Part shown: positions 40,032 to 64,000 of the stretch, one piece after another | Layout: every line of letters begins with the position of its first letter | Position numbering within the stretch: position 1 is the first letter of the stretch | Assembly (NCBI RefSeq): GCF_000143415.4 | Contig: NW_003314282.1 | Location: 825,374 to 889,373, forward strand | DNA: 64,000 nt | From: Selaginella moellendorffii | Taxonomy: Eukaryota; Plantae; Lycopodiophyta | Direction of reading: 5' to 3' | Notes under the pieces: generated by a model | Told to the model about the DNA's origin: nothing | Database searches by the model: none | Seen by the model: the letters and a program-made list of their open reading frames with translations, nothing else | Made by a program: the position numbers and the translations under genes

Positions 40032-43000
40032 TTAATATAAAGCTTCTTTATATACAGTATTGATGAATGTTGATGAATTAAATGGAATTAAATGGCCTTA
40101 TGTATGATTTGTGTCAACTCAAATTGCAAGTTGTTGTGGTGATGTGCATCTTGAGAGTGCAACATAGAACTGCCCATGGGTAAAGACTGGCTGGGGTAAA
40201 TAGATGCCTACATGATCAAATGTTTAACCTTGGTATTTTGAAATTGTTAAACAGTATCCAAGACGAAAAGGAAATTGTTTTCGAGACATATGAAATGGAA
40301 CATTTGAATTAAAGGGTGTTAAGTTAATGCATGGGATAAAAGTTCTAGTACCTTTAAATTCACCTGTAATTATTTCACAGTCCAAAACTTTAGGTGAAGT
40401 TCTTTTGACCATTAATCAAGTTCCATCGCATAATCCAATTGTTGGAGATATATTTCTCAGAAAAATAATTATACAACCTTCTTTTAGTATTAATTTGTGT
40501 GGTGGTAGTCTAGAGGGAGTGATAGAGTTTAGAAATTTAATTGGGAATTCTTCAGGGTGTTCAACATCAACAGAGTCAATGCTAGTATAAATTTGAGGTG
40601 GACTTGGTAATTGAGAGATGATGTTGTTATTAATTGGAAATGTATCATCATTGAGAGGTGTTAAAATGGCTCTATTTACTACAATTTGAACATTTGAAAT
40701 ATCTTCAATACATGGGAATATAAAATCAGTAATAGAGGTACTTCTAATTAGTTCTAAAGGAAGAAGGATAGAATCAAGTGGTAAAATAGGGTTTTGTGTG
40801 TAATTATTTCCATCACCGACTTTCAATAGTCATTCTGCCCAGTTTGGGAACTTGGGGCCAAGCTGCATATTTGTTTGCAATTGAAACTTTCTAAATAGAT
40901 TCCATAGACTATTCATTTTTACAGATGTGGAAACAATCTGTGCTTAATAACTGTGTGGGACAATTATTAATGTTTGACGGAAGTCACCACTTGTAACAAT
41001 AACAATGCCACCGAATGGAGAATTATTATGTTTTAAGTCTTGTAGGCAACGGTCGACAGCTGAAAAAGCAAATGTATGAACCATACTAATTTCATCCCAA
41101 ATAAACACTTGTATTGCTTTTGTAGATCTACCAGCACTGTTATTATGTGTTAACTTAGAAACAGATGTATCATTAATTGGAACTGGTAACTTAAAAATTG
41201 TATGGGATGTTTATCCATTGTGTAGTAATGTGCTTGCAATACCTGTCCATGCCATACAAACCACTTTTTTATTGTAGAACTCAAAATATTTTACTATTGT
41301 ATTTAATAAATATGTTTTGCCAGTACCACCAGGGCCATCAATAAAAATAAAACGGTTGGTATCGGTTGGGCACTCGACAATATTAACAATTTCATTGAAT
41401 ATAGCTAATTGTTCAACATTCAAGTTTCTAATATAATGGTAAATTTCTGTATATAAATGGTTGCAATTTAGTATTGGTTGAATAGAGGTATATAGGATTG
41501 GGATAGGTAAATTGTATGGTTGATTTGTTTTACCATGTATTTTCATTCTTGAGTTAATGTCTATTAGAGCAAGTTTATATCTGTATACAATATTTGTTTT
41601 ACCAAAATCTTCAGAGAGTTGATCCTTAAAAACATCCCAAAGATATGGTGGGTTTTGTGGATTGCAAAAAATACATATGAAAGTAAAGAGTTGACGCAAT
41701 TGTGTAGGCATCTGAAAATTGCATGTTTTTTGTAAACAATTATACCACTCATTATTATCATCAACAAGACCCATAACAACAGCAGCTTATTGAAAGCTTT
41801 GGTAAGTTATATCATTAATTGTTTTAATATTGTCGAAGGATGTCGCTCCTCTTTTATGAAGAAGAATAATACGTAAGTGGTACAATTCGGTATTTAGAGG
41901 AGATACTGAGTATAGTCGAGGAATAACCTTTTTCTTTTTTTGACGTTGCCAAACATTAGCAGATTTATTGAAAACATAATGTAAAGGTATTTCAACGTAA
42001 GTATATTATCTTGCATTCAGATCATGAATATTGAGTTCAAACCATTTTGCTAGCATTGTTCCATTACATGCTGCTCTTTGCAAGGCATTGTGCTCCAAAC
42101 CTTTTGTAAAATACACATTTGGAAGTCAGGAAGATGTACGGGCAGACGTATTATAGGGTGTGAGCATCCATGCATTTTAAATTTAAATATCCTCCAAATA
42201 GCTTCTGGTGTTGAAATGTATCGGGTATTTATAAAATTCATGATTTCATCCCAGTTTAATATGTTTGCAAATTGAGTAGCTGTTTGGATTTGAATGGTTG
42301 CACAATCATATCCTTTATAAACATATTGAAAAAGATACTTAATACTTTTAATTGATGCACATATTTCTATATTTATATGGGTTTTGTATTTTTTACATAA
42401 ATATTTATTATGGTACAATCCATCTATTATCAATTGGAACATCATTTTTAAGGAAGGTGCAATCATTGTTTGGCCTAAAATATTCTGGGTACCTATCCAC
42501 ACAATATGTAGTTCCGTCATTGAAGTTTTTGGGATAGTTTTTGGAGCATTTTTTGTTTTCCATACATGGACTTTGAGGATTTAGTAATCCACATGGACCA
42601 TGTATCATATGTGATGTGATTATTTCAAATAGTTTGGGCTCTGATAAAGGGTCAGGTAATTGAGCAGATACATATTGGTCAATAGTGTCACGGTCTTTAA
42701 TTTTACTTTCATTATCTAATATGCCTAGGAAATGACAATGTGGCAAACCTCTTTTTTGGAACTCAATGACATATATAAATGCAATATTCCAAAGATATTA
42801 TTTTGTGTAATATCATGGAGAAAATATTTTAGCTTCATGTTAAAAACCCTAGCAACTAAATCAGGTCGGTCTTCAAGTCCTTCATTAGGGTGCAGATTTT
42901 GTAATATCTCAAGCCATTTAGGGTTGCAAGTGAAAGTTATAAAAATATCAGGTTTTGAGTGTTTTGATAGCATCTTGGTAATTTTGTTGCATAGCTCTTG

Positions 43001-44313
43001 GGTTTCTTGTAAAAGTAGAAGGTAAAATAACAATTTTTCCTTGTTGAGCATTTGCATTAGCAATTTTGCCAGCAACATAATCCATCAAACCTGTATAAAA
43101 ATCAACTCTTATATTTTTTTGATTAGATCTATAGTATTGTAAATTGTTGCTTTCAATTTTAACATAGGCATCTACAATATATTGTTGGGTGAGTTTTCCA
43201 GCATGTAAAATTTGGTCATATGTAACTGTAGAGGTTGATAATGTTGAATCTCTTTTGGACAAATGATAGGCATAATATTGAAGGAGTGTTACATGCTTGT
43301 TAGAAGAAAGCTTGTCATGCTAGGCTCTATCTTCATGTGGAAAAAGCAATGGATAAACCATAGGATCACAATTACCATTTAAAATAGATATATGTTGTGG
43401 TTCTGATGATTTTGGATGAATGCATATTTCACAGTCAAAAGGTGGCACACCATCTTCACTTTGGAAAACTATTGCAACATCATTAGTTTGTGGAGTATTA
43501 TATCGACGATGGTCTGTGCCTTCATTTTTAATAAGCATATAAACTCCATGTAAATTGCTACCAGAAATAATAGTTCTTGAAAGATTTTCCCGTTCCAATT
43601 CATACATCATTCTAAAAGCTTGTGCATATAGATTAATATATCGAAGTATCATATCTAGTTGAAGTAGTAAATTATAATCACAATTAATGTTAAAAGGGTT
43701 TTGTTTTCTGATATCAGTAGCCTCATTGGAGTCTAGTATTTACAATTGACTATAGCTTGGATTTTGATGTATTGAAGGATGTTGTGGCATAGATTTGTCC
43801 ATGAATTCTATAGTAGTATGGACCATGACCTGTAAAAGTATTAATGCTAGCTCCCATAAACGCAAAAGCAAGTGCACTATTATATTGTCTTATATTACTC
43901 TTGAAATTAGAGTGTTTGTGTGAGTTATATATAGAATACAGAAAAGGTGGTAATGGAAGTATTAGAGGCAGGTAGACCTGTCCACTCTGACAACAAATAG
44001 ACTTCTTCTCATCAGCAAAGTGTGAGGTATGACAATACTTACAAATATATGATAAGGGACCTATATTCAATGTCAAAACAGATGTATCATTATATAGGTA
44101 ATTGCTAGCAAATGTGCTGCGAATCTGAGGTGAAGGGCAAATAGGAATTGGAAATTGACTGCTGTTCAGTGTGATTATTAAGATTTTTTTGATGTCGATA
44201 CTCTGTATCCTCTTGAATATTACTGTTGTAAAAGCTATATGTATGCTGGTGCTGGTTAGTGTCTTCAACATTATCATTGTACGTGGAATGTGTATGTCTG
44301 TGTCGAATAGCAT
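40032..44313 (-). pseudogene. Helitron Rep/Pif1-helicase (RepHel), fragmented
   Basis: CC.SGQV, NIRQYNSALAF, DPMVYPLLFP, PDIFITFTCNPKW, PHCH (HUH), MIHGPCG, KYLFQYVYKG, GPGGTGKTYL, RKQFPFRLGYCLTISK; split by stops and frameshifts. Confidence 0.93.
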
Positions 44314-50215: not shown

Positions 50216-50509
50216 ATTCTCAAACACGTGGTTAAAGAAATAACCCCTTTACAGTTACCCCCTATCGGACAGCTGTGATTGGCTAGATCTGGCGGCCCAC
50301 AAAGTTCGGCATTTGCTCCTTATCTACTATAGTAGTAGATGTTCCTGTTGCTTATTTTAACTTCTAAGTAAATAACCACAAAAACATAAACTATTTATTT
50401 TAAGAGAAATTTTATTTTATTTTAACAAGTCCAAAATAGTAATCTGTTGCCTAGTGTGTTCCACTGCTATTAATATAGATTAGCTGTAAGTTTAAATCTA
50501 AAAATCATA

Positions 50510-51382
50510 ATGATTTATAGCTATATTACAGTATATGTTTTATTTTTGCTGATAATATTTAGTCATAACAGCTTAGCAGCTCTTATTGTAAGAGATAATC
50601 GTAGTGATCTCTCATTATCTACAAAACTATTAATTTTAAGAGCAATAAGAGAGGCTATAGATCAAATAGATGTTAATGTTCCATTTTACACTGGATATAC
50701 AAGATATTATCAGAATTATGGAATTAGGATATTATTATCTAGTATGAATTCGGAAATATCTCCTCCTAACTATCAACTTCTTTGTAGTTTATTTCCAAAT
50801 TACACTACTCCATGGGAAGGTTTGACATTAAGAGCTGAATTTCAAAGAATTTATAATAATTACATCCGTATTGATGATGACATAATTCACTATGGGATTA
50901 CAGAATATATTTTAGGGACACTAAGTATTGAATATGTAGTTGAAAATACTTATATTCTAAGTATACAAAAGATAAACTATTTAAGTTATTTAAATCAGCA
51001 TCAAGATTGTATGTGGAGGCGTACATGTATTAAAAGTACATCTAATTTTTCAAACTTCTCTAATTTATTAAGTGGAGAATTTCTGCAATCTTTAAATAAA
51101 AAATACTCATTACATGTTCAACTAAATTGTAATGTTATATTATATAAAGAAACTATTACCATATGGCAGACTAATACAGAAAATAAAGGAACTAATTGTT
51201 ATTTAACAATGCAAGTTGATGGTAATCTAGTATTATATGATGAATTTCATAATGTTATATGGTCATATAATATTTATTGGAAAAATATTTGGAAACCAAT
51301 GGCACTATGCGTTGAAGATACTGGTCATATAAGTGTTTCTAATATTGTTGAGCAAACTTCAATCTGGAGGGTTCCAAAATAA
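50510..51382 (+). CDS. Secreted protein: signal peptide, unknown ~150-aa domain, C-terminal bulb-type (GNA) lectin domain
   Basis: 290-aa intronless ORF with a hydrophobic N-terminus; LLSGEFL, QLNCNVILY, IWQTNT, LTMQVDGNLVLYD..VIWS. Confidence 0.72.
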   Translation: MIYSYITVYVLFLLIIFSHNSLAALIVRDNRSDLSLSTKLLILRAIREAIDQIDVNVPFYTGYTRYYQNYGIRILLSSMNSEISPPNYQLLCSLFPNYTTPWEGLTLRAEFQRIYNNYIRIDDDIIHYGITEYILGTLSIEYVVENTYILSIQKINYLSYLNQHQDCMWRRTCIKSTSNFSNFSNLLSGEFLQSLNKKYSLHVQLNCNVILYKETITIWQTNTENKGTNCYLTMQVDGNLVLYDEFHNVIWSYNIYWKNIWKPMALCVEDTGHISVSNIVEQTSIWRVPK

Positions 51383-52027
51383 TTAGAAAAACTTCACATG
51401 CTTCTAGGTTTCACTAAATAATACTAATATTTATATTTAATAATATATTGAATATTTATCAATTAACAATGAATAGTTACTAAAATATTTTATAATACAA
51501 GAAGGCTAAACATATAGTATAAATATTATGACTGAAAATTTTATTGATGGTAATACTGATTAAATATTCTATCATAAAATTGTAAACATGAAATTATTAC
51601 TTAACAAATAGTTTTAATAATTACTTTGCTCTGTCTTGCACTTTAAAAATTACTTTGCTCTCTCTTGCACTGGCTTGGCAAGAACCCGTGCGTATTGAGA
51701 CTAGTCTTTCAATATCACTAGATGATAGCTTACTGTGTCTACCAAACACCCTCACTATCACACCCTTTGTATTAGTCTCATTTCGGTGTCAAATGTATGA
51801 GACACAAATCCCTAAGCCCCAAAGTGGAGCCGAAAGGGTGCCACATGGTAGTGGCCGAAGCAAAAGCCAAACGAGCGTAACATGTTTGGACTAAAAGGCT
51901 CCGACTTGAAAGGTTGACAGCGGGAGTGGAACTCCCAACGCAGTGCTCAAGGAACAAGCATGAAGCAAGCAATAAACGAGGCTCCAAAAAGGGACCCAAA
52001 AGGACCAACATATGACACATGGAATTG

Positions 52028-52510
52028 TCCGAGATGGAGTCCGAGATGGACCCGAGTTGGAGTCTGAGGTGGAGTCCGAGATGGAGTCCGAGATGGACCC
52101 GAGTTGGAGACCGAGATGGACCAAGACGGAGTCCGAGATGGAGTCTGAGATGGAGTCCAAGATGGAGTCCGAGATGGACCGAGATGGAGTCCGAGATGGA
52201 CCGAGATGGAGTCCAAGATGGAGTCCGAGATGGAGTCCGAGGTAGACCGAGACGGAGTTCGAGATGGAGTTCGAGATGGAGTCCGAGATGGAATCCGAGA
52301 TGGAGTCTGAGAAGGACCCGAGATGGAGTTTGAGGTCGAGACCGAGACCAGGACCGAGACTGAGACCAAGACCGAGACCGAGACCAAGACCAAGACCAAG
52401 ACCGAGCCCGAGCCCGAGTCCGAGTTTGAGCCCGAGCCCAAGTCCGAGTCCGAGTCCGAGTCCGAGTCCGAGTCCGAGTCCGAGTTCGAGTCCGAGTTCG
52501 AGTCTGAGAG
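52028..52510. repeat. Hexamer/dodecamer tandem array (GAGATG/GAGTCC/GAGACC)n
   Basis: Visible array; source of the spurious low-complexity ORFs. Confidence 0.95.
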
Positions 52511-52559
52511 GGTGAAAGCCCAAAGCATTCGTCTCCCAGACCCTGGGGGGTTTGGTGAG

Positions 52560-54700
52560 CTCCAAAAGTATAGTAAGGGGGAGGACTGCAGTGGAGCCAG
52601 TTTAGCCAGGAAAGGCCAATTTGGCCAGGAAAGGCCAGTTTGGCCCAGGAAGCCAGACCCAGTGTTGGGTGATGAACTGACCACTAGGAAGTCCAAGACT
52701 AGAGTGAATACAGACCGACAAGCGGGGTAGCTTACTGAAGTGTTCAAGAGCCGGCTCTAATTCCCCCGGGAGATCGTCTGGCCGATGCTCCCAATCCAAA
52801 TGTGATACTTGGATACCTAGCATGGCTCAATGGAACCTTGCTCTAAGCCCATGGCTAGAGCACTTAAAGGCGAAAGGCAGGGAGAGTACCCATGAGGCCT
52901 GCGGTGTTCCGAAATGTTGTCCCAAAGTCCCAAACTATGGAAAGGAAGAGGAGTAGCCCTTTGGTGTGGTGACCAAAGACACAATCACACAGGAAGGAAG
53001 TCCTAGAGGACAGTGGGACTTAGTGGTCGGGCCCGTGGGCCTTGATCTAATGGCAGTGTTGGCGAACTCAGCCAAGGAAAGAAAGGGACTTGGTGGGGAC
53101 TGGAACGAAGATATTGGGGAAGGCTATTCCCCATGTCTGCGGGCATCCTAAGGATGCTAAGGAGTGGATCTAGGATGACCACTCATGGACGAATGGCCCA
53201 ATCCTAGAGAGACGGGATTGCAATGCAGGTGGTGTTAGACCACCGATGTGACCAAGGTGAATGGGCATGGCCTGGTGTAACAGGCAGATATGTTAGTGGT
53301 ACCTTGGGTGTCGGTCATGGGATCGGACATGTGGAGCACTAGGACCAAGTGCAAAGGTTGAGTGGCGGGGATGCCATTCTCGGGGCTAACAAGCCCAAGT
53401 TTGGAATAGGACTTATGGAGGTTGTGAGTGAGACTCCTCCAAGTGGTCGAAGGTGTGGCTAAGTGACTAAAGTAGAATGGAAAAATTTAGTCGATTACAA
53501 CTTAGTATCGAAATTGTTCTTTAGTCTGACTTTTATTGGTGCTCAAGTATATCACCACTAGCGTTGGCATTGGAAGATCCGAGGAGTGGGCCTATCCTCG
53601 AGGAGTAGTAGGTCAGGAAGATATGGCTCTCCATTATAGTTCATGTGTGAACTTGTAGACGAGGTGGTGGATAGAAAAGGGCCAATAATGAAACGACTTT
53701 GGGATCTTGGGAACAGTGCAAGGTTTTCCTCATTGAGTTGAGGATGTGATCCAAATGAGCGTTTGACTCAGCAAACTGGCTAATGTAGTTGTGGTAAACA
53801 ACTATAATTGGGATCACAGGGAAGATATAGAGTCCAAAATGATAAAGGAGTCACAAGGTTACCCTCATGAAGTTGAGGTTGGTGCTCATGAATGGGAGAC
53901 CAAAAGTAATGACCGCAGGAGGTCAAATACGGAAAAGGACACAAGTCCTTAAAATGGTAGCCAGAGCTACCTCTAATAAATGCTGGAACAACCCAAGGAG
54001 TTAAGGGTGTATTTAGAGGATGAGTTGGTATTCTCATCACATGGACAAATGGTTCTAAGGGGCGAAAGGTTGCCCCTAGAGAACAAATCAAGTGTCGGAG
54101 TAACACTTGCAAAACATGGTCCTTGTGAGTAGGACATGAATACAAGGAGTTGTATTCTAGTGAGGTAGCATCTGAAAAGTAGGACCTTATAAGTCGTCGG
54201 ATTAACAAAGTCTAAAAGGTTGAATAACTCCAATAGAGTCAAGGAATAATCCTAAGGGCTTGAGGAAAGCATTTGGATTGAAGTGTGTGGTGCCCTACAA
54301 AGGATGGGGAGGATTTTGAGATTTAAGCATGAGAGCAGTATGTATCTCATTGATGGCAGAAGGTGCCATGCTAAAGTCGTGGGAAAAAGTTTCCCGGAAG
54401 AAAACAACTTTAACACAAAGTTATGCATAAACTCTATGGTGCAGTGCTAATGGATAATTGGCATAAGAGACAACCATATTGGTCCTGGCAAAAATACCTG
54501 GACACAAGTAAGAAGGGTCATAAAGGTAGGCTTGTGGAGCCGATGGTGTGGAGACACCAAAGGTGCCAAGGCGTGCTGCCTTGAGGTCAAGTTGGCAGGT
54601 TCATGAGAACCCCTTCCAAAGGAATCCCAATAGAAATGAAAATAGCATAGCCTAAGCTGGAAAGCATGCAGTTAGAGTGTGGTGACCCAGCTAATGATGG
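52560..54700 (+). mobile_element. Highly degenerate gypsy-like retroelement remnant
   Basis: RT-like traces near 53830-54150 (SK....QGY.HEV..., LEDELVFS where YLDDILIFS is expected); no LTRs resolved. Confidence 0.4.
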
Positions 54701-55415
54701 AGGTGTGGAAGCACCAACAATGGGTTGTAGAACTTGACAACTATGAAACAACTAAATGCTCTATTTCGTTAAAGTGGGATTTATTCAGTAAAATGGGACT
54801 AGGTACAAATTTTCAAGTATTTGAAAATGACGTGAAATTATATGTTTTTTGTCCAGGGGCTAGACATATCTGGGGCATGGTGACTAGCGCGGTGACTTTA
54901 TGTCCAGACTGAGTCCATCTGGTTGTATAATAAATCTCATTGTCAAGGTGAACAAGCCGAATCTGAAGCTAAAGAAGAGCGATGGCATGCGCGCACACAC
55001 TATTTGTTTGTTCATTGAGCGTGTGGTGAGCTTTCCAAGATGAACGTCATTCCTATTAGCCAGACATATAACTTAATAGTGAGAACATTTAGATATTATT
55101 CAATGTTATCTTTTTCTAACGAATCTAATTGTGAAGGTGTAGCAAGAGGCATTGCTAGTCTGGAGAAGTCATTTAACTCATTTGACCCTTAGTGTATTTT
55201 AATGAAACTAAATAACATTCATATTATTAAGGAATTTCTCTAGTACCTTTTTTTTACGACATAGAGGCTTGCATTTCTTTCAAAGGTGATTTAGTAAAAG
55301 GCCTGAGGGCACATGCCATTCTATTTCTCAGACCGATATTAAGATATACTAGTGCAAAGGGAAAAAGGTATTTGGTGATCAAGTAAATGGCATGAGGGCA
55401 CACGCCATTATAAGC

Positions 55416-55673
55416 CTAAGCGCTAGTGGACACCTCCTTTTTGGTACTCTCAGCGGTACTATCATCCTTCTCCGGGTCAGTTGTTTTGCTTTGGATTGTT
55501 GTTTCTGACGTTACTGGGGCATTCTCGATAGTTGTTAATGTTGCCGTTTGTTCAGAAAAATGATCACCTGGAGTATAGTACGGGGAGTTTGGAAGACTTA
55601 TATATTCTACATCTTCACCTATCTCCTTCTCCGTCTCCTTTTCTGCCTCACTTACAGATTTTGTGCTTGCCAT
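55416..55673 (-). CDS. Small acidic Ser/Thr/Glu-rich ORF (85 aa) inside the transposon-like unit
   Basis: MASTKSVSEAEKETEKEIGEDVEYISLPNSPYYTP...; open frame in a stop-rich context; no recognisable homology. Confidence 0.35.
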   Translation of the reverse strand: MASTKSVSEAEKETEKEIGEDVEYISLPNSPYYTPGDHFSEQTATLTTIENAPVTSETTIQSKTTDPEKDDSTAESTKKEVSTSA

Positions 55674-56342
55674 GAGAACACTCTTCACCCTAAAATATGG
55701 AGTTCGTTGTGTTATAAAAGGAAACCAACACACTCGCTGCAAGGGAATGATGGTACATAAAGCACGTAAGCCCACAATATGGGTTTATGTGCCATTAATA
55801 TGGGCCACACGCCATATTATTAGATTTATGCACGTGTGATTGGTAAATGCATATGTCACATCATCTTTGTTTTACCTCACACACTATATCAGGCCTAATG
55901 AACCATATCACATGTGCACACATGCTATATATATGGAGAAGTATTATGCAAGGATAGAAATTCAATGCATGATTGTGGAGAGCAATGGCATGAAGCCACA
56001 TGCTAAATAACATTTTAGAGAAAGAATTAAAATAAAAACATGCAAACAGTACTAAGTGGACCAAGACTTAGAAGTGCACAATTGAATGAGGTATTTCTAA
56101 TAAATACTTCACTCACCTCATATAGGAATGGCTACCACTCTCAAATGGCGTATCGCCTCATGCCATCACCTCGCAATTTGTTATAACAATCCGATGAATT
56201 CATATTCGGCTTGTTCACCTTGAACTTTAAGTAAGATTTGCTAGAACAACTAAGAATTTATACTTGTTATTTGTATCATCTCACCTAGGAATGGCGTAAG
56301 GCCACATGCCATCACGCCTCCTCTGATTCAGATTCGGATTGT

Positions 56343-59300
56343 TCACCTTGAAATAAAATACATTAGAAACTTAGTAAAGGAATATTCATGAATCTCACCT
56401 TGAACCCGGGTTATGAATGCTCTTGCTGCATCTCTTGCATGGTCTGGCAAGGTGATGGTGGCACTCTGCTTCCACATCCAACCATGCACAACATTATCCA
56501 CCGATATGCTCATGCTGGGATCCCTTGGATTCAGCACCCATCTCTTTTCTAGGCAATCGTTCGTATATCCGGAACTTGGCTTGAACCACTCCACAGTTAC
56601 ATTGAAGGAGTTAGTTTCCGCGTCCTCCTCTGCATCAGTGATGCAGTGCCCCACCCATATCATTTGTTTTTTATTACTGGGTCTGACAAGCACGACCATT
56701 CCTTTGCAGACCTGTACTGGATTGAATGCTGAATCCGGCTTCTTGTTCCTCGGCCCACAATAGTGATCCTCAACATCGTTATCTGTCACTGCATTTCCAG
56801 AGGACATTGTTCCGCTACTATCTGGTGCTCTGGGTTCTAGCCAAAAGGACTCTTCCAATTCTTCATATACAACCGGCCCATTTTGGATAGCAGATATAAT
56901 CTTCTCCCAGTATTCGAGCAAAGGCTTGCACCTCTGAAAATAGGATTCTCCACCAAACACCAACCCCCTCTTCCAGAAGGCAATATGCTGTCTAATCCCG
57001 GCCACTATACTTTCCTGGTCTTTGAGTCCATCCGGGTGCATCGGCCGTGGGGAACCCTGAGGAATCATAGGTTCCCCAGTTATGGGATCTCTCTTGAAGA
57101 GTTCAATGCCGTCCACTGGCAGCCACACTGTGTCCCATTCTCTCATCTTGTACCTCATCACTGGAGCACCGTCACACATGCTGAAATGAAACTGAAGAGG
57201 CTTGGAGTGGCCAATCAGCGTTTCGGATCCGTCCCTGATGTAGCCTCTTACAAACCCCTTAAAGTCTGGAACCTCTGTCAGAAGTGCAGCTTCAACAGTG
57301 CCTTTGATGCAATTTTGGAATTCATCGTAGAGTTGTGGGAGGGTGAGGACATTGGATCGCCGGAGGGACTCTGCCAGGTGACTGAACATGGCATCGACGT
57401 CTTCATGAGTGTGCCCAACCATGAGAAAGCCAAGTGTAACCGTTTCAAATATGCCTTTGGCAACAAGCATCGCCAAGTACGCGAAGACGTACATGTTTTT
57501 GTTCTCACTGCCAGCATTGTTTGTTTGGAGCAGAAGATGGGGTGGAAGGCCACATCGGCCGCAAGAACTTCCTTGAGATTCTGCTTCGTTTGGATGAGGC
57601 TGTGCATTCACCGGGCGACCAGCCTCGTCGGAATGGCATGAGGCCTCACGTGATAACCCTACAATCTGACGGCCAACATATTCACTGGGATGGCATGGGG
57701 CCCCACGCGATACTGCAAGCCTTTGCTCCTCCTCCAGCTGAACCCTGTATGGGGTTCGATCGACAAGGGCCTTATGCAAGGGTTGGCCGTTCAGCTCAGT
57801 CTGCGCACTTTGCAGAGACCTTAAGTGTTTTGCTAGGGACGCAATCATCATGTTTGCACCCCCGCCACCCCATAGAGGTACAAAGAAGTTCCCATAGTTC
57901 TGGGCACCATGCCCATGAGCGATTATGCCAAACAGAGACACAGGCAGCTGCATGGATGAAGAGATTGCCTTGGGGGCAGGATTGAGTCGAGGTAAGCACG
58001 TCTTTTTCTGGTCCATTTTGTCGTGGATGATGCAGAGGTAAGAGTCAGGTCTCTCCATGGAGAGAATCCTGTTATGATAATATGCAGTCCTGCAGCTTCT
58101 CTGCTCGATGTTGTGGTCGAGCCGCCTTCTAACCAACGTCTCTCGCTCTTGAGCGCTGCAAGAATTCTTCGACAAAGCCATTTTGATAGCAGTGCACTCG
58201 TCACACTTTGAAAAGCTGGAGTACTTTCCTATACTCACATCCCTGAACCTGTTGCTCCACAATCTACTAAATCTAGATTGGCTCAGCTTCCTGTAGCCAT
58301 TACTCTGGAGTTCCCGATTCACATCTTCCAATATGGCCCCCTTGGTATACATGGAAGGGAGAACTCGTTGGGTGTCTCGTGTTCCATCTTCCAAGAGGCG
58401 GGTTTTATGTGGTTGCTGCTCGCTACATGTCTCGACAAACCTCTTGAAGATTGCCTCTCCATATACAACATGACCCCTGGTTTTGTGCGTACCGTCGTTC
58501 CCATGGACTGCCTGTTGAACCTTTTGTTCCTCGAACTCAGTTTTGATTCTGTAGAATGTGGTTCGAGGGACTCCATAAATGATTCTCCATGCCTTCATGC
58601 AGACCAAACCCCTCTGGAAGACCATGCCCCCCACCTGATGTTCTGAAGCATCAACAAATGACCGTAATGCCTCATACACAAAATTGCAAGCTGCCTTCCA
58701 GGACAATGTTTTGTATCTTGCTCTCTCCTCTTCAATAGCATCCCAATCAGCATGTTGACAGCACCTCCTCTTGCAACAAGCAACTGTCGAGACCATTCGA
58801 ACCTCCATCGCCATTTTCTGCCTTTTCGGTTCGTTGCTCAGATCCCTTTGGCTGCGCTTTAGGAAGGTGTACTTTCTTTTCCCATGAAGAGATGTTCTGT
58901 CATCAGTTGTAGTGGTGTCTGATTGTGAATCCTTCACATTCTCAAACACTAAGTGCCTCAATTTCCACCGCACAATGCTTCCAATAGTCAGACTGTTTTC
59001 TTCTGTGTCAACAACCTCTAAAATCGCAACTCCAATATCATCCCAGCCCAATTCTTGATTAGCAACCGCATCTCTTGGATCGACAACTGTGGCTAAGCCC
59101 TCAGCTACCACCTCCCCCTCGGGGTTGTTTAGAAACACCTTCGCCTGAATCCATGTAGCACGGTTCTTAAGATCCACGGAGGGAACATGCGTCGCACTTG
59201 CGCTGTCCCCAACATCTGCTTTCTTCTGAAGATTTTTCAAGGCAACAACAACATTTACCCCGACGACCATCTCTCCTCGTTCAATAGCGACCACATTCCT

Positions 59301-59453
59301 ATCGAAGACAGTCTCTATTGATACAGCAGCATTGCCTTCCCCAAGCCTTTGACAGTGTATAACAAAGTTCCGATCCATAGACACAAGGGTCCTTTTTGCA
59401 ACTCTCTTCCCACCATTCAAAATGTAAACCTTTTCCCCAACCCTGAAGGCCAT
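56343..59453 (-). CDS. Transposase-like protein (RNase H/DDE-like core, two N-terminal SH3/Tnp1-like repeats, C-terminal Tudor/BAH-like module)
   Basis: 1036-aa ORF; CCKRRC, VCMKAWRIIYG, FSKCDEC, IIHDKMDQKKT, LQTNNAGSENKN, FLMVGHTHEDVDAMFS; C-terminal LVRP..IWVG..VTVEWF. Confidence 0.8.
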   Translation of the reverse strand: MAFRVGEKVYILNGGKRVAKRTLVSMDRNFVIHCQRLGEGNAAVSIETVFDRNVVAIERGEMVVGVNVVVALKNLQKKADVGDSASATHVPSVDLKNRATWIQAKVFLNNPEGEVVAEGLATVVDPRDAVANQELGWDDIGVAILEVVDTEENSLTIGSIVRWKLRHLVFENVKDSQSDTTTTDDRTSLHGKRKYTFLKRSQRDLSNEPKRQKMAMEVRMVSTVACCKRRCCQHADWDAIEEERARYKTLSWKAACNFVYEALRSFVDASEHQVGGMVFQRGLVCMKAWRIIYGVPRTTFYRIKTEFEEQKVQQAVHGNDGTHKTRGHVVYGEAIFKRFVETCSEQQPHKTRLLEDGTRDTQRVLPSMYTKGAILEDVNRELQSNGYRKLSQSRFSRLWSNRFRDVSIGKYSSFSKCDECTAIKMALSKNSCSAQERETLVRRRLDHNIEQRSCRTAYYHNRILSMERPDSYLCIIHDKMDQKKTCLPRLNPAPKAISSSMQLPVSLFGIIAHGHGAQNYGNFFVPLWGGGGANMMIASLAKHLRSLQSAQTELNGQPLHKALVDRTPYRVQLEEEQRLAVSRGAPCHPSEYVGRQIVGLSREASCHSDEAGRPVNAQPHPNEAESQGSSCGRCGLPPHLLLQTNNAGSENKNMYVFAYLAMLVAKGIFETVTLGFLMVGHTHEDVDAMFSHLAESLRRSNVLTLPQLYDEFQNCIKGTVEAALLTEVPDFKGFVRGYIRDGSETLIGHSKPLQFHFSMCDGAPVMRYKMREWDTVWLPVDGIELFKRDPITGEPMIPQGSPRPMHPDGLKDQESIVAGIRQHIAFWKRGLVFGGESYFQRCKPLLEYWEKIISAIQNGPVVYEELEESFWLEPRAPDSSGTMSSGNAVTDNDVEDHYCGPRNKKPDSAFNPVQVCKGMVVLVRPSNKKQMIWVGHCITDAEEDAETNSFNVTVEWFKPSSGYTNDCLEKRWVLNPRDPSMSISVDNVVHGWMWKQSATITLPDHARDAARAFITRVQGEIHEYSFTKFLMYFISR

Positions 59454-60750
59454 TCTGAAAGTGCAGAAAAGAAATTAAGACCATACAAAAAATGATTGGA
59501 GAATGGCCTAAATCATAACATACCAAACAACCTCAATAGCATGAGGCCACATGCCATTATTCAAACATGCTATTGACACCCACGTGAAATTTCGCATTCA
59601 CAAAATTGGCATGAGCCCTCATGCCATCTTGATATACACACAGCTGCAGGCAAGTAAAAACATACATGACAATACGCTAGCCATGAAATTGCAAGGGCCC
59701 AAGATGGCATGTGGCCTCATGCCATTTCTAAATGTGGTCCTAAGCCATTCCATGGTGAACATACCAGGAAGCACAAGTGCCGAATATCAAGAGGAAGCGG
59801 TAGCCACACCAAAGACAGTGCCGCTCGCAACACCGCAACTAGAGGCGGTAGTTCTACAGCAACACCGCAACTGCTCGTAGCGCCGCTCGCACAAACTGCC
59901 ACTCGCATAAACTGCCGCTCGCAATGGCGCTCGCAATGCCGCAACCGCTCATAGACGCATAAACCACAGCCCACAACGCCGCTTACACAAGCAGCGCTCA
60001 CTGCGCTCAGCGGAACCAAGAACACGGCACACAAAAATGATAGACCTAGGAATGAGTTCGAGAATTCAAAAATAACACACGCTTGAACGTCACATCAAAT
60101 CCTCTGACAAACCAGATCTTATGACTCCTCTGACAAATTTCAAACTGAGTAGCTTCTAGACTTTGCTGTCGGAGGTTGAACTTTGTCACATCATGTCCTT
60201 GCCTCGATCCAGCTGTGCCATGTCAGTGATTCGAACTTTGCCATGCCATGTCAGCGATCCGCGCCAAGATTATTCGCCGTGTAAAGGAATAATTATGCTG
60301 TGTGTGTACGTCCATTTATGGCAATATAAGGCCACACGCCATTCAAAGAATAATGCTAGTCGAGCATTTTTTGGTGCATTTTTGGGTTCAAAATTGCATG
60401 AGCCCACACGCTATAAAGTTTACCTGTACCAAAAATAGAAACAGCTTTATTTACTTGGGAATTTAAGTGGTTGAGGCATTTTTAAACTTACAAACACATG
60501 CCCTACTTACATTCCTTTGGTTGCTTAAAATTCAAAAATATTATAAACCTTTCTTTTTGCATTTTCAATGTTTTCAATTATGGTTTTTGATTTTCGTAGG
60601 ACCAGCCTAGTAATCTATTTGCATCCCGTCATGTTTATAGCTAACTTTCGTTTGTCCCCTTCGCTAGCCTGAGATACATCTGCTCGGCATCTGCCTCTTA
60701 CAGCATTTGCCCAGAAAGGGCATCTTTCTTCACGCAGCATTTGCCACATG

Positions 60751-60783
60751 TTTAGGGTTTAGGGTTTAGGGTTTAGGGTTTAG
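60751..60783 (+). repeat. Interstitial plant telomeric repeat (TTTAGGG)4 + TTTAG
   Basis: Directly visible. Confidence 0.95.
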
Positions 60784-62380
60784 CAATTCAGTAGCTTGAT
60801 AAACATGCAAATACAGAACTTGATGCAAAATCCTTTGATATGTCACAATGCCCCTAGGACCATAAACACATTTCAATAGAGAGGGTCCTTTCATTTCATA
60901 ACTCCTTACGTAGATCTTGGTGAAACCAGAGTTAGTGAAGTTAGTTTCTTGTGATCCCGCATCTGATTGTGATGTCCCTTTGCAGTTTCGATGGAAAGGT
61001 CAATGCACACCAAACTGTAAAATCTTGGAGCAAAATAACGGTCGGATCTATGGCAAATGCCCCTGAAACATTATAAGGCTCGTGTGGTCTCATGTGGTGT
61101 CCGATCGAGATGCTTCTTTGCAGGGTCATCAAGAAAGACATTGTATACCATTCTGTAAAATCTAGTTGCGATCTAACAGTTGGATCTCCAGAAAACTCAA
61201 AAAAATCTCGCGCGTGTCAGAATATTCTAGGAATATACTCCTATGTGCCCCTGAAAATGGCATGCAGCCCCACGCCATTCAAGAGATAACACCAGATGAC
61301 GCCGAGAATTTTTTGGTGCATTTTTTGGGTTCAAAATTGCATGAGCCCACACGCTATAAAGTTTATTTTTGCCAAATAGAGAAAAGTTTATCTGTGTCAT
61401 GTGAGGTAGTTACAGTCCTTTGTGCTCGGCATCTACCTCTTGCAGCATTTGCACTGAAAGGGAATTTTTCTCCATTCAGCATTTGGCCCTGAAAATGGCA
61501 TGCGCCCACACGCCATTCAAGGAATAACGCCACAGGACGCCTGGATTTTTGGGTTTAAAATGTTTAGGGTTTTTTGGGTTTTTTCAAAATATTTTGGGTC
61601 CAACGTTTTTTGGGTTTCTTTGGTTCAAAATTGCATGAGCCCACACGCTATAATATTGATTTGAGAGAAAAATAGAAACAAATAGAATTTCTTTATTTAG
61701 CTGAACATCTGCCATTTTTGGAAATACAAGATGCTTTGGAATATCCAATCATGCATGGTATAAATATAGCGAGGTTATTAAATGATATCCCAATCATGAT
61801 CTTTCTTTTGGATTTCGCGTGCATGCAGTCCGAGGAATGATGACGTTGCGGATTTCTTTTGGATTTTGCGTGCTTGCATGCGCGCAGCAATCCAGAAATT
61901 AATGGTGGCGCCCAAGTCCGAGGAATGATGACGTGGCGGGATTACCAACCGTTGTGACATTTCGCGCGTGTGAGGTTAGGTTTTGCATTTTGCTTTGTAC
62001 TCGCGCTCGCACACTCGCGCTCGCGCTCGCATCACACTCGCGCTCCCGCTCGCATCGCGCTCCCACTCGCGATCACGCTCACTTCTCTACAGGTTTCTCG
62101 TGTGCATCGGCGTCCACTCGCGCTTGCATCACACTCGCGCTCGCATCGCGCTCGTGTGCATCGGCGTCCACTTCAAGACACACCCAGTTTGTAACTTCGC
62201 CACCAACTCCGCCGCCCACTCCGCCACCCACACGCAGCCCACTTGGCGTCCCGGGAGATTTCAACACCACTCTCCAACTGTAAGTGGCAGAGTAGCCTTG
62301 CTGCTACGATCCGCTGCACACACAGTGCACATTCGCCAGCGAGTCCGGCCTCGATTGTCACGGCCTCCATTCGGCTTCAA

Positions 62381-64000
62381 ATGGTAAGTCTTTTAGACCA
62401 AGTAGAAAATGGCATGAGGCCACATGCCATTCAGTAGCAACATTGGCATGCACCGATTGGGCTCTCGAGTGCAGTCCGGTTACAGATGGCGTGTAGCCTC
62501 ACGCCATCTTAGGATGCAGCCTCAAGACATCTGATGCAGTGGTGAATGGCGTGTGGCCTCACGTTATTTCCAGCTGCTAGCTTTTCATCTGTCAGCTCTA
62601 ATTGTTGTGCATTTCTAAACAGGCGAGGAATTGCGTTCTTCTTCCAGCCACTGTCAATGTGGATGCAGAGAAGGGGGAGGAGCTCACCAGTTGGACTTTC
62701 GGGATGGAAGGCGAGGATCTGATGCTGTACAACACAGATGGTGGGAGAAAAGAATGCATGGGGATCCTCATCCAAGTGACAGACACTCCATGCAGTTCCA
62801 TGCAAGAATATGGACTGGCACTTGTGGTAGAGACAGCGTCCGCCTTCAAGATCCACCTTGCACATCCTAGCGGCTTCCCGGAGGGGGGCAGCGGCTATGA
62901 GGAATTCCTAGAGGGAGCTAGGGAGAGGTTGTCCAGGAGGCCCACAATTTCAAAGACGCTGCGGGTCTATGAAGATCACATGGAATCCACGGACCTCACC
63001 TACGGCGATGTTCAAAAACTATATTCCAACATTGAGCCGTTGAGAGTGCCTCCAGTTTGTGAAGCGAAGGGGAAGGGGGTCGATCTAGAAAATACCCCGA
63101 AGCAGAAAAGGGTGGTCAAGCTCAAGCCGATGTCCGACTCTGCTGCTCCAAAAAAGAAGCTACTCGGTGATGCCATTGCCTCGGGTTCGAACACTACACC
63201 CACCAAAAAGAAGAGCCGCAAAGAGCAGAAAGAGCAAGAAGAGGCAGCAAAAATCGTCGCAAATAATAGTACTTGTTACTATTCCAACAAAGTATATACA
63301 ATTGACGTGAGCCGTATCGAGATCCAAAGCAAATACAACCACAGGCTAGTATCTGATGAGTGGGTGGAGAAACTGGAGCAGAAGATGCTGGCAAGTCCAG
63401 TAACACCCGACATCGCAGACGTGATCCCCTACTACCGAACAATGAAGGGCGAGACGAGGTTTCCAGACTTGATCAATAGGAAGGTGTTGGACGATCAGAA
63501 CATCCGGTTCTATGCCGTCTCCGGGCAGCATTCTAGCTTGGCGATGCAACAGATAGTTGTGGATATTATGGTGGGCGAGGAGGTGAAGAAAGTCTTCAAG
63601 ACAAGAGTTGTCCGCCTGATAAAAGGCAACTCGCCCCTCCGATCTATCATATACATCTCCCACGCGCAGAATGTCAAGCAAGAAACGTGCTACAAATCGG
63701 GTCTGCACGAGACATTGGCACGAACACGGAAGCTCTGGGTTCAACTGAAGAAGCCACAAAAACCAGGACAAGGACGTGCACTAGCAACTAGCGCCTGGCA
63801 GGTAAGCCTCGTTGCATGTGGCATAGCATGTGGCCTCACGCCATTTCCATTGCAGGAATTCTCGAGTCTTCTCTCGAAAACACTGGGGGTCAATGACACA
63901 CTCAGCATCCATAACATTCTACTCGCGACAAAAGTTGTTTTTGACAAATGGGTAGATGTGCTGAGGAGGTACCATGACGGGGAGTTGCTAAACTCAATGG
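62381..64000 (+). CDS. ParB/Srx-like domain protein, 3'-incomplete (exons 62381-62383, 62623-63801, 63856 to >64000)
   Basis: ATG|GTAAGT micro-exon; frame open from 62623 to the window end (hence absent from the ORF track); Lys-rich NLS-like linker; IDVSRI..YNHR..DEWVEKLEQKM...FYAVSGQHSSLAM...ISHAQNVKQE. Confidence 0.75.

Follow-up and report, generated by a model that had tools for sequence, protein, structure and literature searches.

A DUF7869 transposon of Selaginella moellendorffii encodes a predicted ParB/Srx-fold protein and carries a 22-bp palindrome as its candidate target

We analyzed a 64,000-nucleotide stretch of the Selaginella moellendorffii genome (contig NW_003314282.1, positions 825,374 to 889,373 of the forward strand, RefSeq assembly GCF_000143415.4), which we refer to as the window. 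Its last part, 54943-64000, is the visible part of a DUF7869 (Sola1-like) DNA transposon whose right end lies past the window; we delimited it by the span of a recurring palindrome and by two divergent genes, a transposase gene (56343-59453, minus strand) and a second gene, gene 2, which starts at 62381 on the plus strand. Gene 2 encodes a domain whose predicted model matches the ParB/Srx fold, and within the window the palindrome is confined to the element and avoids its coding DNA. We put at about even the chance that this transposon, likely of Sola1 type, marks itself as self through binding of its palindromes by the gene 2 protein. An earlier note on this DNA had described a transposon with a transposase-like gene at 56343-59453, a divergent, spliced second gene with a ParB/Srx domain, and about 20 palindromes not seen in the preceding 54.9 kb, and had drawn a parallel with VANC target motifs, which accumulate in noncoding DNA. 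The follow-up bore out these points, including the VANC-like layout; open frames and GT-AG introns agree with a spliced second gene, the splicing itself being deduced from sequence and homologs.

The palindrome has the 22-bp consensus ATGGCRTGWGGCCWCAYGCCAT, which is identical to its own reverse complement. With at most 3 mismatches allowed it has 19 copies, and with at most 6 it has 22; every one lies between 54982 and 63844, and positions 1-54942 have none. By comparison, 100 shuffles of the window gave 0 matches. One group lies in the left arm (54982, 55298, 55387, 55907, 55985, 56145, and 56291; range, 54982-56312) and another in the intergenic DNA (59536, 59606, 59704, 60321 [marginal], 60393, 61257, 61336, 61495, and 61630; range, 59536-61651), and both putative introns of gene 2 contain copies as well. 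Coding DNA makes up 47 to 49% of the region. None of the 22 copies falls in it if a candidate intron in the transposase gene is accepted (P = 8e-7), and 2 of the 22 do if it is not (P = 9e-5). The exact palindrome was not found in viral or prokaryotic genome contigs. The earlier description of the motif as a palindrome holds for the consensus, which is symmetric. It does not hold for the copies, which are imperfect, with 7 to 10 of 11 pairs matching (3 of 11 in one marginal copy), and two of which sit inside the transposase reading frame.

The ParB/Srx-fold domain corresponds to 63271-63687 on the plus strand (model residues 21 to 159). We modeled it with AlphaFold2 from a 25-row alignment (predicted local distance difference test [pLDDT], 76.5) and discarded a single-sequence model (pLDDT, 38.7). 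When the model was compared with 48,161 chains by VIA-align, the top 8 were all members of the ParB/Srx superfamily, with Z scores of 6.3 to 10.2, and the next row had a Z score of 3.9. The best match was PadC (Z, 10.2; root mean square deviation [rmsd], 2.9; 99 residues aligned), and KorB (Z, 9.5; rmsd, 2.6; 94 aligned) and pNOB8 ParB (Z, 8.7) were also in this group. The remainder were a serine kinase (SerK), two sulfiredoxins, SbnI, and Atu1540. Foldseek placed Noc first (E = 5.5e-5) and ParBs next, and all 30 rows among the matches listed belonged to the superfamily. Thus, as judged from the predicted model, the assignment of the gene 2 domain to the ParB/Srx fold is firm. Sequence searches gave less: the window protein had no Pfam or NCBIfam match, gene 2 had no ParB match in PDB sequence searches, and 1 of 19 relatives matched a DndB model weakly (E = 0.04). 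An Atlas feature match at 0.92 was to a cluster with 35% ParB_N. Separately, the Atlas clusters nearest by features to 63211-63801 were fungal DUF3723 (0.95) and animal clusters (0.96 and 0.95), hinting that DUF3723 carries a related ParB-type domain.

Gene 2 probably has a minimal first exon. Its putative exon 1 consists of the ATG alone (62381-62383), followed directly by GTAAGT, and its frame matches that of exon 2. Putative intron 1 (62384-62622; 239 nucleotides [nt]; GT..AG) holds the palindromes at 62409, 62486, and 62546. Exon 2 (62623-63801) is an open frame of 393 codons, supported by homologs, that encodes an N-terminal region, a Lys-rich linker, and the ParB/Srx-fold domain. Putative intron 2 (63802-63855; 54 nt; GT..AG) is in frame and holds the palindrome at 63823. 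Most unspliced relatives stop shortly past the position of this intron and annotated Riccia proteins continue, which supports a conserved intron. Exon 3 (63856-64000) is an open frame that runs past the window end, and by eye it resembles the continuation of two homologs, P0034 and P0039. Single contigs from sequencing runs X3 and X4 reach 1307 and 1192 bases beyond 64000. No splice joint was seen in run X20, which we guess to be an RNA run, and one X20 contig passes straight through intron 1; none of the runs with words of the element is listed as an RNA run.

At least half of the element's words were present in 19 of 24 listed sequencing runs. In run X1, 62200-64000 drew 8603 short records, of which 5697 were at 99% identity or higher, 2416 at 95 to 99%, 481 at 90 to 95%, and 9 lower. 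This spread fits a young multicopy family, the figures not being a copy number. Across the 18 variant positions listed, changes relative to the window were mostly A>G or T>C; this excess is what is expected if the window copy decayed through methyl-C deamination, as it may have done. The same region in X1 also gave very many short variant contigs of very high summed depth, with one rare joint to telomere-type letters, and runs with 2 to 4 Mb of contigs still contained about three-quarters of the element's words. In the leader of gene 2, a 40-bp piece (62277-62316) was common to many other contigs with different flanks. This piece looks like the 3' part of the large-subunit rRNA, which would make it a possible rDNA capture; it had no Rfam match.

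The transposase open reading frame (ORF) encodes 1036 amino acids (aa) from its ATG, matches Pfam DUF7869 (E = 1.2e-40), and has 27 homologs, the named sources being Riccia sorocarpa and, weakly, a lancelet. Its motifs C2C, HDKMD, QTNN (QL/MDN in relatives), and GHTHEDVD appear in alignment A1, and C2C, HDKMD, QxDN, and GHTHED are conserved among the homologs. DUF7869 together with the D..DN..GHTHED motifs probably indicates a Sola1-type enzyme. The window copy has Asn (QTNN) at the second catalytic Asp, a residue that all 15 other in-frame rows of A1 retain. A near-identical contig protein, P0001, has the same bases at QTNN in a shifted frame. The transposase of the window copy is probably inactive. 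Within the gene, 57600-57713 (minus strand; ends GTATCG..GCACAG) is either a candidate in-frame GT-AG intron of 114 nt or a variable coding loop, and it holds the palindromes at 57633 and 57690. It falls in a length-variable loop of A1, and removing the 114-nt piece leaves a loop about as long as that of the shortest homologs, which is why it may be an intron. The 3' end of the transposase gene is overlapped by a unit at 56305-56365, of which 54928-54989 (plus strand) is an inverted copy (79% over 62 bp).

We found 17 relatives of gene 2 at an E value of ≤0.001 in a search of 1.84 billion representatives, the named ones coming from the liverworts Riccia sorocarpa, R. fluitans, and Calypogeia fissa. 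Among 305 and 7997 candidates from word-based searches, none proved to be a gene 2 homolog, and in viral contigs 0 relatives of gene 2 or the transposase were confirmed among 43 and 149 candidate stretches. A full-length Riccia relative, P0048 (1064 aa), has a weak N6/N4-methyltransferase match (PF01555; E = 5.8e-4, below the cutoff), and its HPxxK..VLDFF motif aligns weakly to M.RsrI (E = 0.18).

These features suggest how the element could recognize itself. The gene 2 protein would bind the palindromes as a dimer, since a twofold-symmetric site points to a dimeric reader; a homodimer prediction of the ParB/Srx-fold domain scored 0.00, which is evidence neither way. The palindrome may be read by a helical region that would follow the ParB domain beyond the window. 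By analogy with the Riccia relative and with a protein from the brown alga Ectocarpus, a C-terminal amino-methyltransferase-like domain might thereby be delivered to the element. There it could alter or shield chromatin, with a possible effect on methylation, and serve in anti-silencing or self-regulation, VANC-like in effect. Because the nucleotide pocket has diverged, with GQHS in place of GxxR, we do not assume a classical CTP-gated sliding clamp. A bolder version, which we consider unlikely, is that a family of ParB-fold proteins with a rewired GQHS pocket, encoded by transposons of nonseed land plants, clamp on family-specific palindromes, spread, and deliver a protective methyltransferase-like domain. 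Palindrome and reader would then coevolve family by family as a prokaryote-derived, programmable anti-silencing system.

A metagenome scan yielded 35 related transposase loci. A de novo palindrome search found at least 4 copies of one palindrome of the locus's own in 9 of 22 loci (L001, 8; L004, 4; L011, 7; L014, 4; L020, 4; L027, 14; L028, 4; L032, 30; and L035, 5), and shuffles (5 each) gave no more than 2. As controls, six 9-kb stretches of the window yielded 1, 2, 2, 1, 2, and 6, the last from a tandem array. The palindromes vary by lineage, and none is identical to that of the window. They fall into three motif classes, each corresponding to one supported clade in a transposase tree of 23 rows, which excludes duplicates (L013, L015, L016, and L031) as well as short rows, L032 among them. 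This shows that motif class is heritable. However, the tree names no reader, because kin share any cis motif.

Several observations weigh against gene 2 as the reader or against its proposed activity. The profile of the gene 2 family matched 0 of the 35 transposase loci, including the palindrome-rich L011, L027, and L032; many of these loci lack the length or are too eroded to contain gene 2, in that L001 to L010 end less than 2 kb from the transposase start and the long plant-type loci are decayed. Clade-specific palindromes were present in related loci, no gene 2 homolog was detected with them, and these loci lend no support to the two genes being linked outside the window. Five ParB-like locus tags of Riccia sorocarpa were seen in cluster samples, none of them adjacent to the five DUF7869 tags seen there. 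The counts for L014, L028, and L035 may stem from local tandem arrays. The putative methyltransferase-like domain comes from one full-length relative, P0048, which has no DPPY-type motif, and the corresponding part of the window gene lies beyond 64000.

That palindrome class follows the transposase tree fits equally well with the transposase as reader. In that case, the palindromes would be the transposase's own binding sites and the ParB-fold gene would be cargo with another job. Subterminal repeats serve as transposase binding sites in CACTA and hAT elements. The palindromes cluster directly upstream of the transposase start in the window and in L001, L002, and L004, and the palindrome-bearing loci in which gene 2 went undetected are also in keeping with this explanation. 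However, copies in the window also lie kilobases inside the element and within the introns of gene 2, and a cis motif would be common to kin whichever protein reads it. We regard transposase binding, though rather improbable, as the main alternative to binding by the gene 2 protein.

Alternatively, the palindromes could have no protein reader at all: they might act as hairpins formed in RNA or in a single strand, or they might be neutral leftovers of local duplication. Several copies do lie within bigger duplicated units of 60 to 78 bp. However, the core is kept in both orientations amid unrelated flanks. For 19 copies, after 3 near-duplicates were dropped, half-site positions 1, 2, 4, 5, 7, 8, and 10 carry 1.4 to 2.0 bits, and the 12 flanking bases carry no more than 0.5 bit; T7 is invariant in 38 of 38 half-sites. 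A conserved core without conserved flanks looks like a maintained site and not merely a duplicated block. In addition, the copies are imperfect, and positions 6 and 9 show free variation from one half to the other, a pattern that suits base readout more than pairing. Comparable motifs, each particular to its clade, occur among the relatives. We think it very unlikely that the palindromes lack a protein reader.

Finally, the element could encode a true ParB/parS-like system, in which a CTP-gated clamp loads on the palindromes, slides, and holds the element ends together or handles an excised intermediate. The top fold matches, PadC, KorB, Noc, and ParB, are in its favor. The box-I Arg is kept (R in 14 and K in 2 of 16 filled rows), as is the Asn of ENxxR (17 of 18 rows), and hhalign aligned the first 45 columns of the gene 2 family to a ParB profile (P = 0.0045). 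Since hhalign covered only these columns, the comparison of the pocket was mapped by motif position. All 18 family rows have the motif G-Q-H-[S/T/L]-x-x-A (S in 16, T in 1, and L in 1; GQHS at 63523-63534 in the window), with G, Q, H, and A invariant and N154 near-invariant. Thus, the GxxR Arg is found in 0 of 18 family rows, as against 7 of 7 plasmid ParBs, in which the G, R, E, N, and R of GxxR and ENxxR are all invariant; neither the Glu preceding the Asn nor the Arg following it is conserved in the gene 2 family. The GxxR Arg is required for CTP use, and a family without it makes a canonical CTP clamp doubtful. Sulfiredoxin, SbnI, and SerK have the same fold and are not known to act as clamps, and the ORFs in the part of the element that the window covers include none resembling ParA. 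The CTP-dependent clamp envisaged in the earlier note is therefore not supported, and we hold a ParB/parS-like system of this kind to be very doubtful.

Several further observations concern the related loci and the surroundings of the element. A candidate gene 2 homolog in L011 (tblastn; E = 0.49) was rejected on inspection, and an ORF of 1110 codons in L032 (2496-5825) found no support as a ParB-methyltransferase fusion. Upstream of their DUF7869 transposases, L027 (502-2343) and L032 (7-1644) have ORFs for C5-cytosine methyltransferases (PF00145; E = 2e-10 and 1e-8, respectively). By eye, these transposases, whose elements carry 14 and 30 palindromes, have an OTU-like N-terminal stretch. The intergenic region of the window element (59454-62380) contains a short array of the plant telomere type, repeats rich in CTCGCG ahead of gene 2, and three related 60- to 78-bp units, and its CpG observed/expected ratio of 0.91 is the maximum within the element. 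No Rfam match was obtained in 54000-64000. An apparently truncated long terminal repeat retrotransposon-like fragment with a tandem repeat region (51700-54900) adjoins the left arm by eye. Helitron-like helicase/Rep fragments (41211-44313, minus strand) and an intronless AT-rich ORF of 302 codons whose C terminus is bulb-type lectin-like (50474-51382) were likewise identified by eye. The window as a whole shows marks of land-plant DNA, namely TTTAGGG repeats, pentatricopeptide repeat (PPR) genes, and introns that are short.

The window element resembles bacterial ParB/parS systems (Spo0J, Noc, KorB, and PadC) in its N-terminal fold and in its many cis copies of one palindrome. It differs from them in having GQHS for GxxR, an EN that is not conserved, no ParA seen, and a nuclear transposon as its context, and the helix-turn-helix and dimerization domains of bacterial ParB were not seen in the part of gene 2 within the window. 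ParB-helix-turn-helix methyltransferase fusions of another family have been described (Iyer 2016; PMC4738411). The closest design is that of Sola1-1_Ec32 from Ectocarpus, in which a gene on the strand opposite the Sola1-type transposase encodes a 1104-aa protein with ParB-like and N4/N6-methyltransferase domains, proposed to bind and modify its own element (PMC12477816). The placement of the ParB-like gene is the same in the window, and the size of the accessory protein is similar to the 1064 aa of Riccia P0048, in which the C-terminal methyltransferase is weak. Our element is from a land plant rather than a brown alga, the likeness is drawn from the published description, and the main text of PMC12477816 mentions no palindromes. 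PAG3, an accessory gene of red-algal Plavaka (EnSpm/CACTA) elements, likewise has a ParB-like N-terminal domain and adjacent inverted repeats proposed as its binding sites (bioRxiv 10.1101/2025.02.11.637652). In contrast, PAG3 belongs to another transposase superfamily and its C terminus is a putative 2-oxoglutarate oxygenase. Its repeats form tandem arrays beside the gene, whereas ours are dispersed over arms, intergenic DNA, and introns, and its ParB call is an HHpred match (E = 0.29), whereas ours is a structure match on a predicted model. The same preprint cites earlier work for similar green-algal proteins. The design is not new: a ParB-like accessory gene opposite a Sola1 transposase has appeared in print for a brown alga, and one beside inverted repeats for red algae. 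Among the literature matches listed, judged by title and the start of the abstract and with subscription journals and Repbase outside their scope, there was no land-plant report of a ParB-like transposon accessory gene. The concept is already published for algae, and the window element is a land-plant example of it.

VANDAL21 of Arabidopsis is a Mutator-like element, and like the window element it encodes an accessory protein, VANC21, and has amassed a short motif in noncoding DNA. VANC21 motifs accumulate in introns and in intergenic and terminal noncoding DNA and differ between related families (PMC5735166). Unlike the window palindromes, they are 8 to 9 bp long and lie in tandem repeats; their function was shown experimentally, and the passages drawn on here do not mention a ParB fold. 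VANC has been described as the sole case shown to let a transposon recognize and modify its own DNA (bioRxiv 10.1101/2025.02.11.637652). ParB-like accessory genes are a putative second candidate, after VANC, for transposon self-recognition. Because the 22-bp site is so clearly delimited and the fold confidently assigned, binding could be tested directly, and through the Riccia relatives the work could move into a liverwort that is tractable. If the proposed reading is true, each family would provide a protein and its matching site with which chromatin could be marked at chosen targets.

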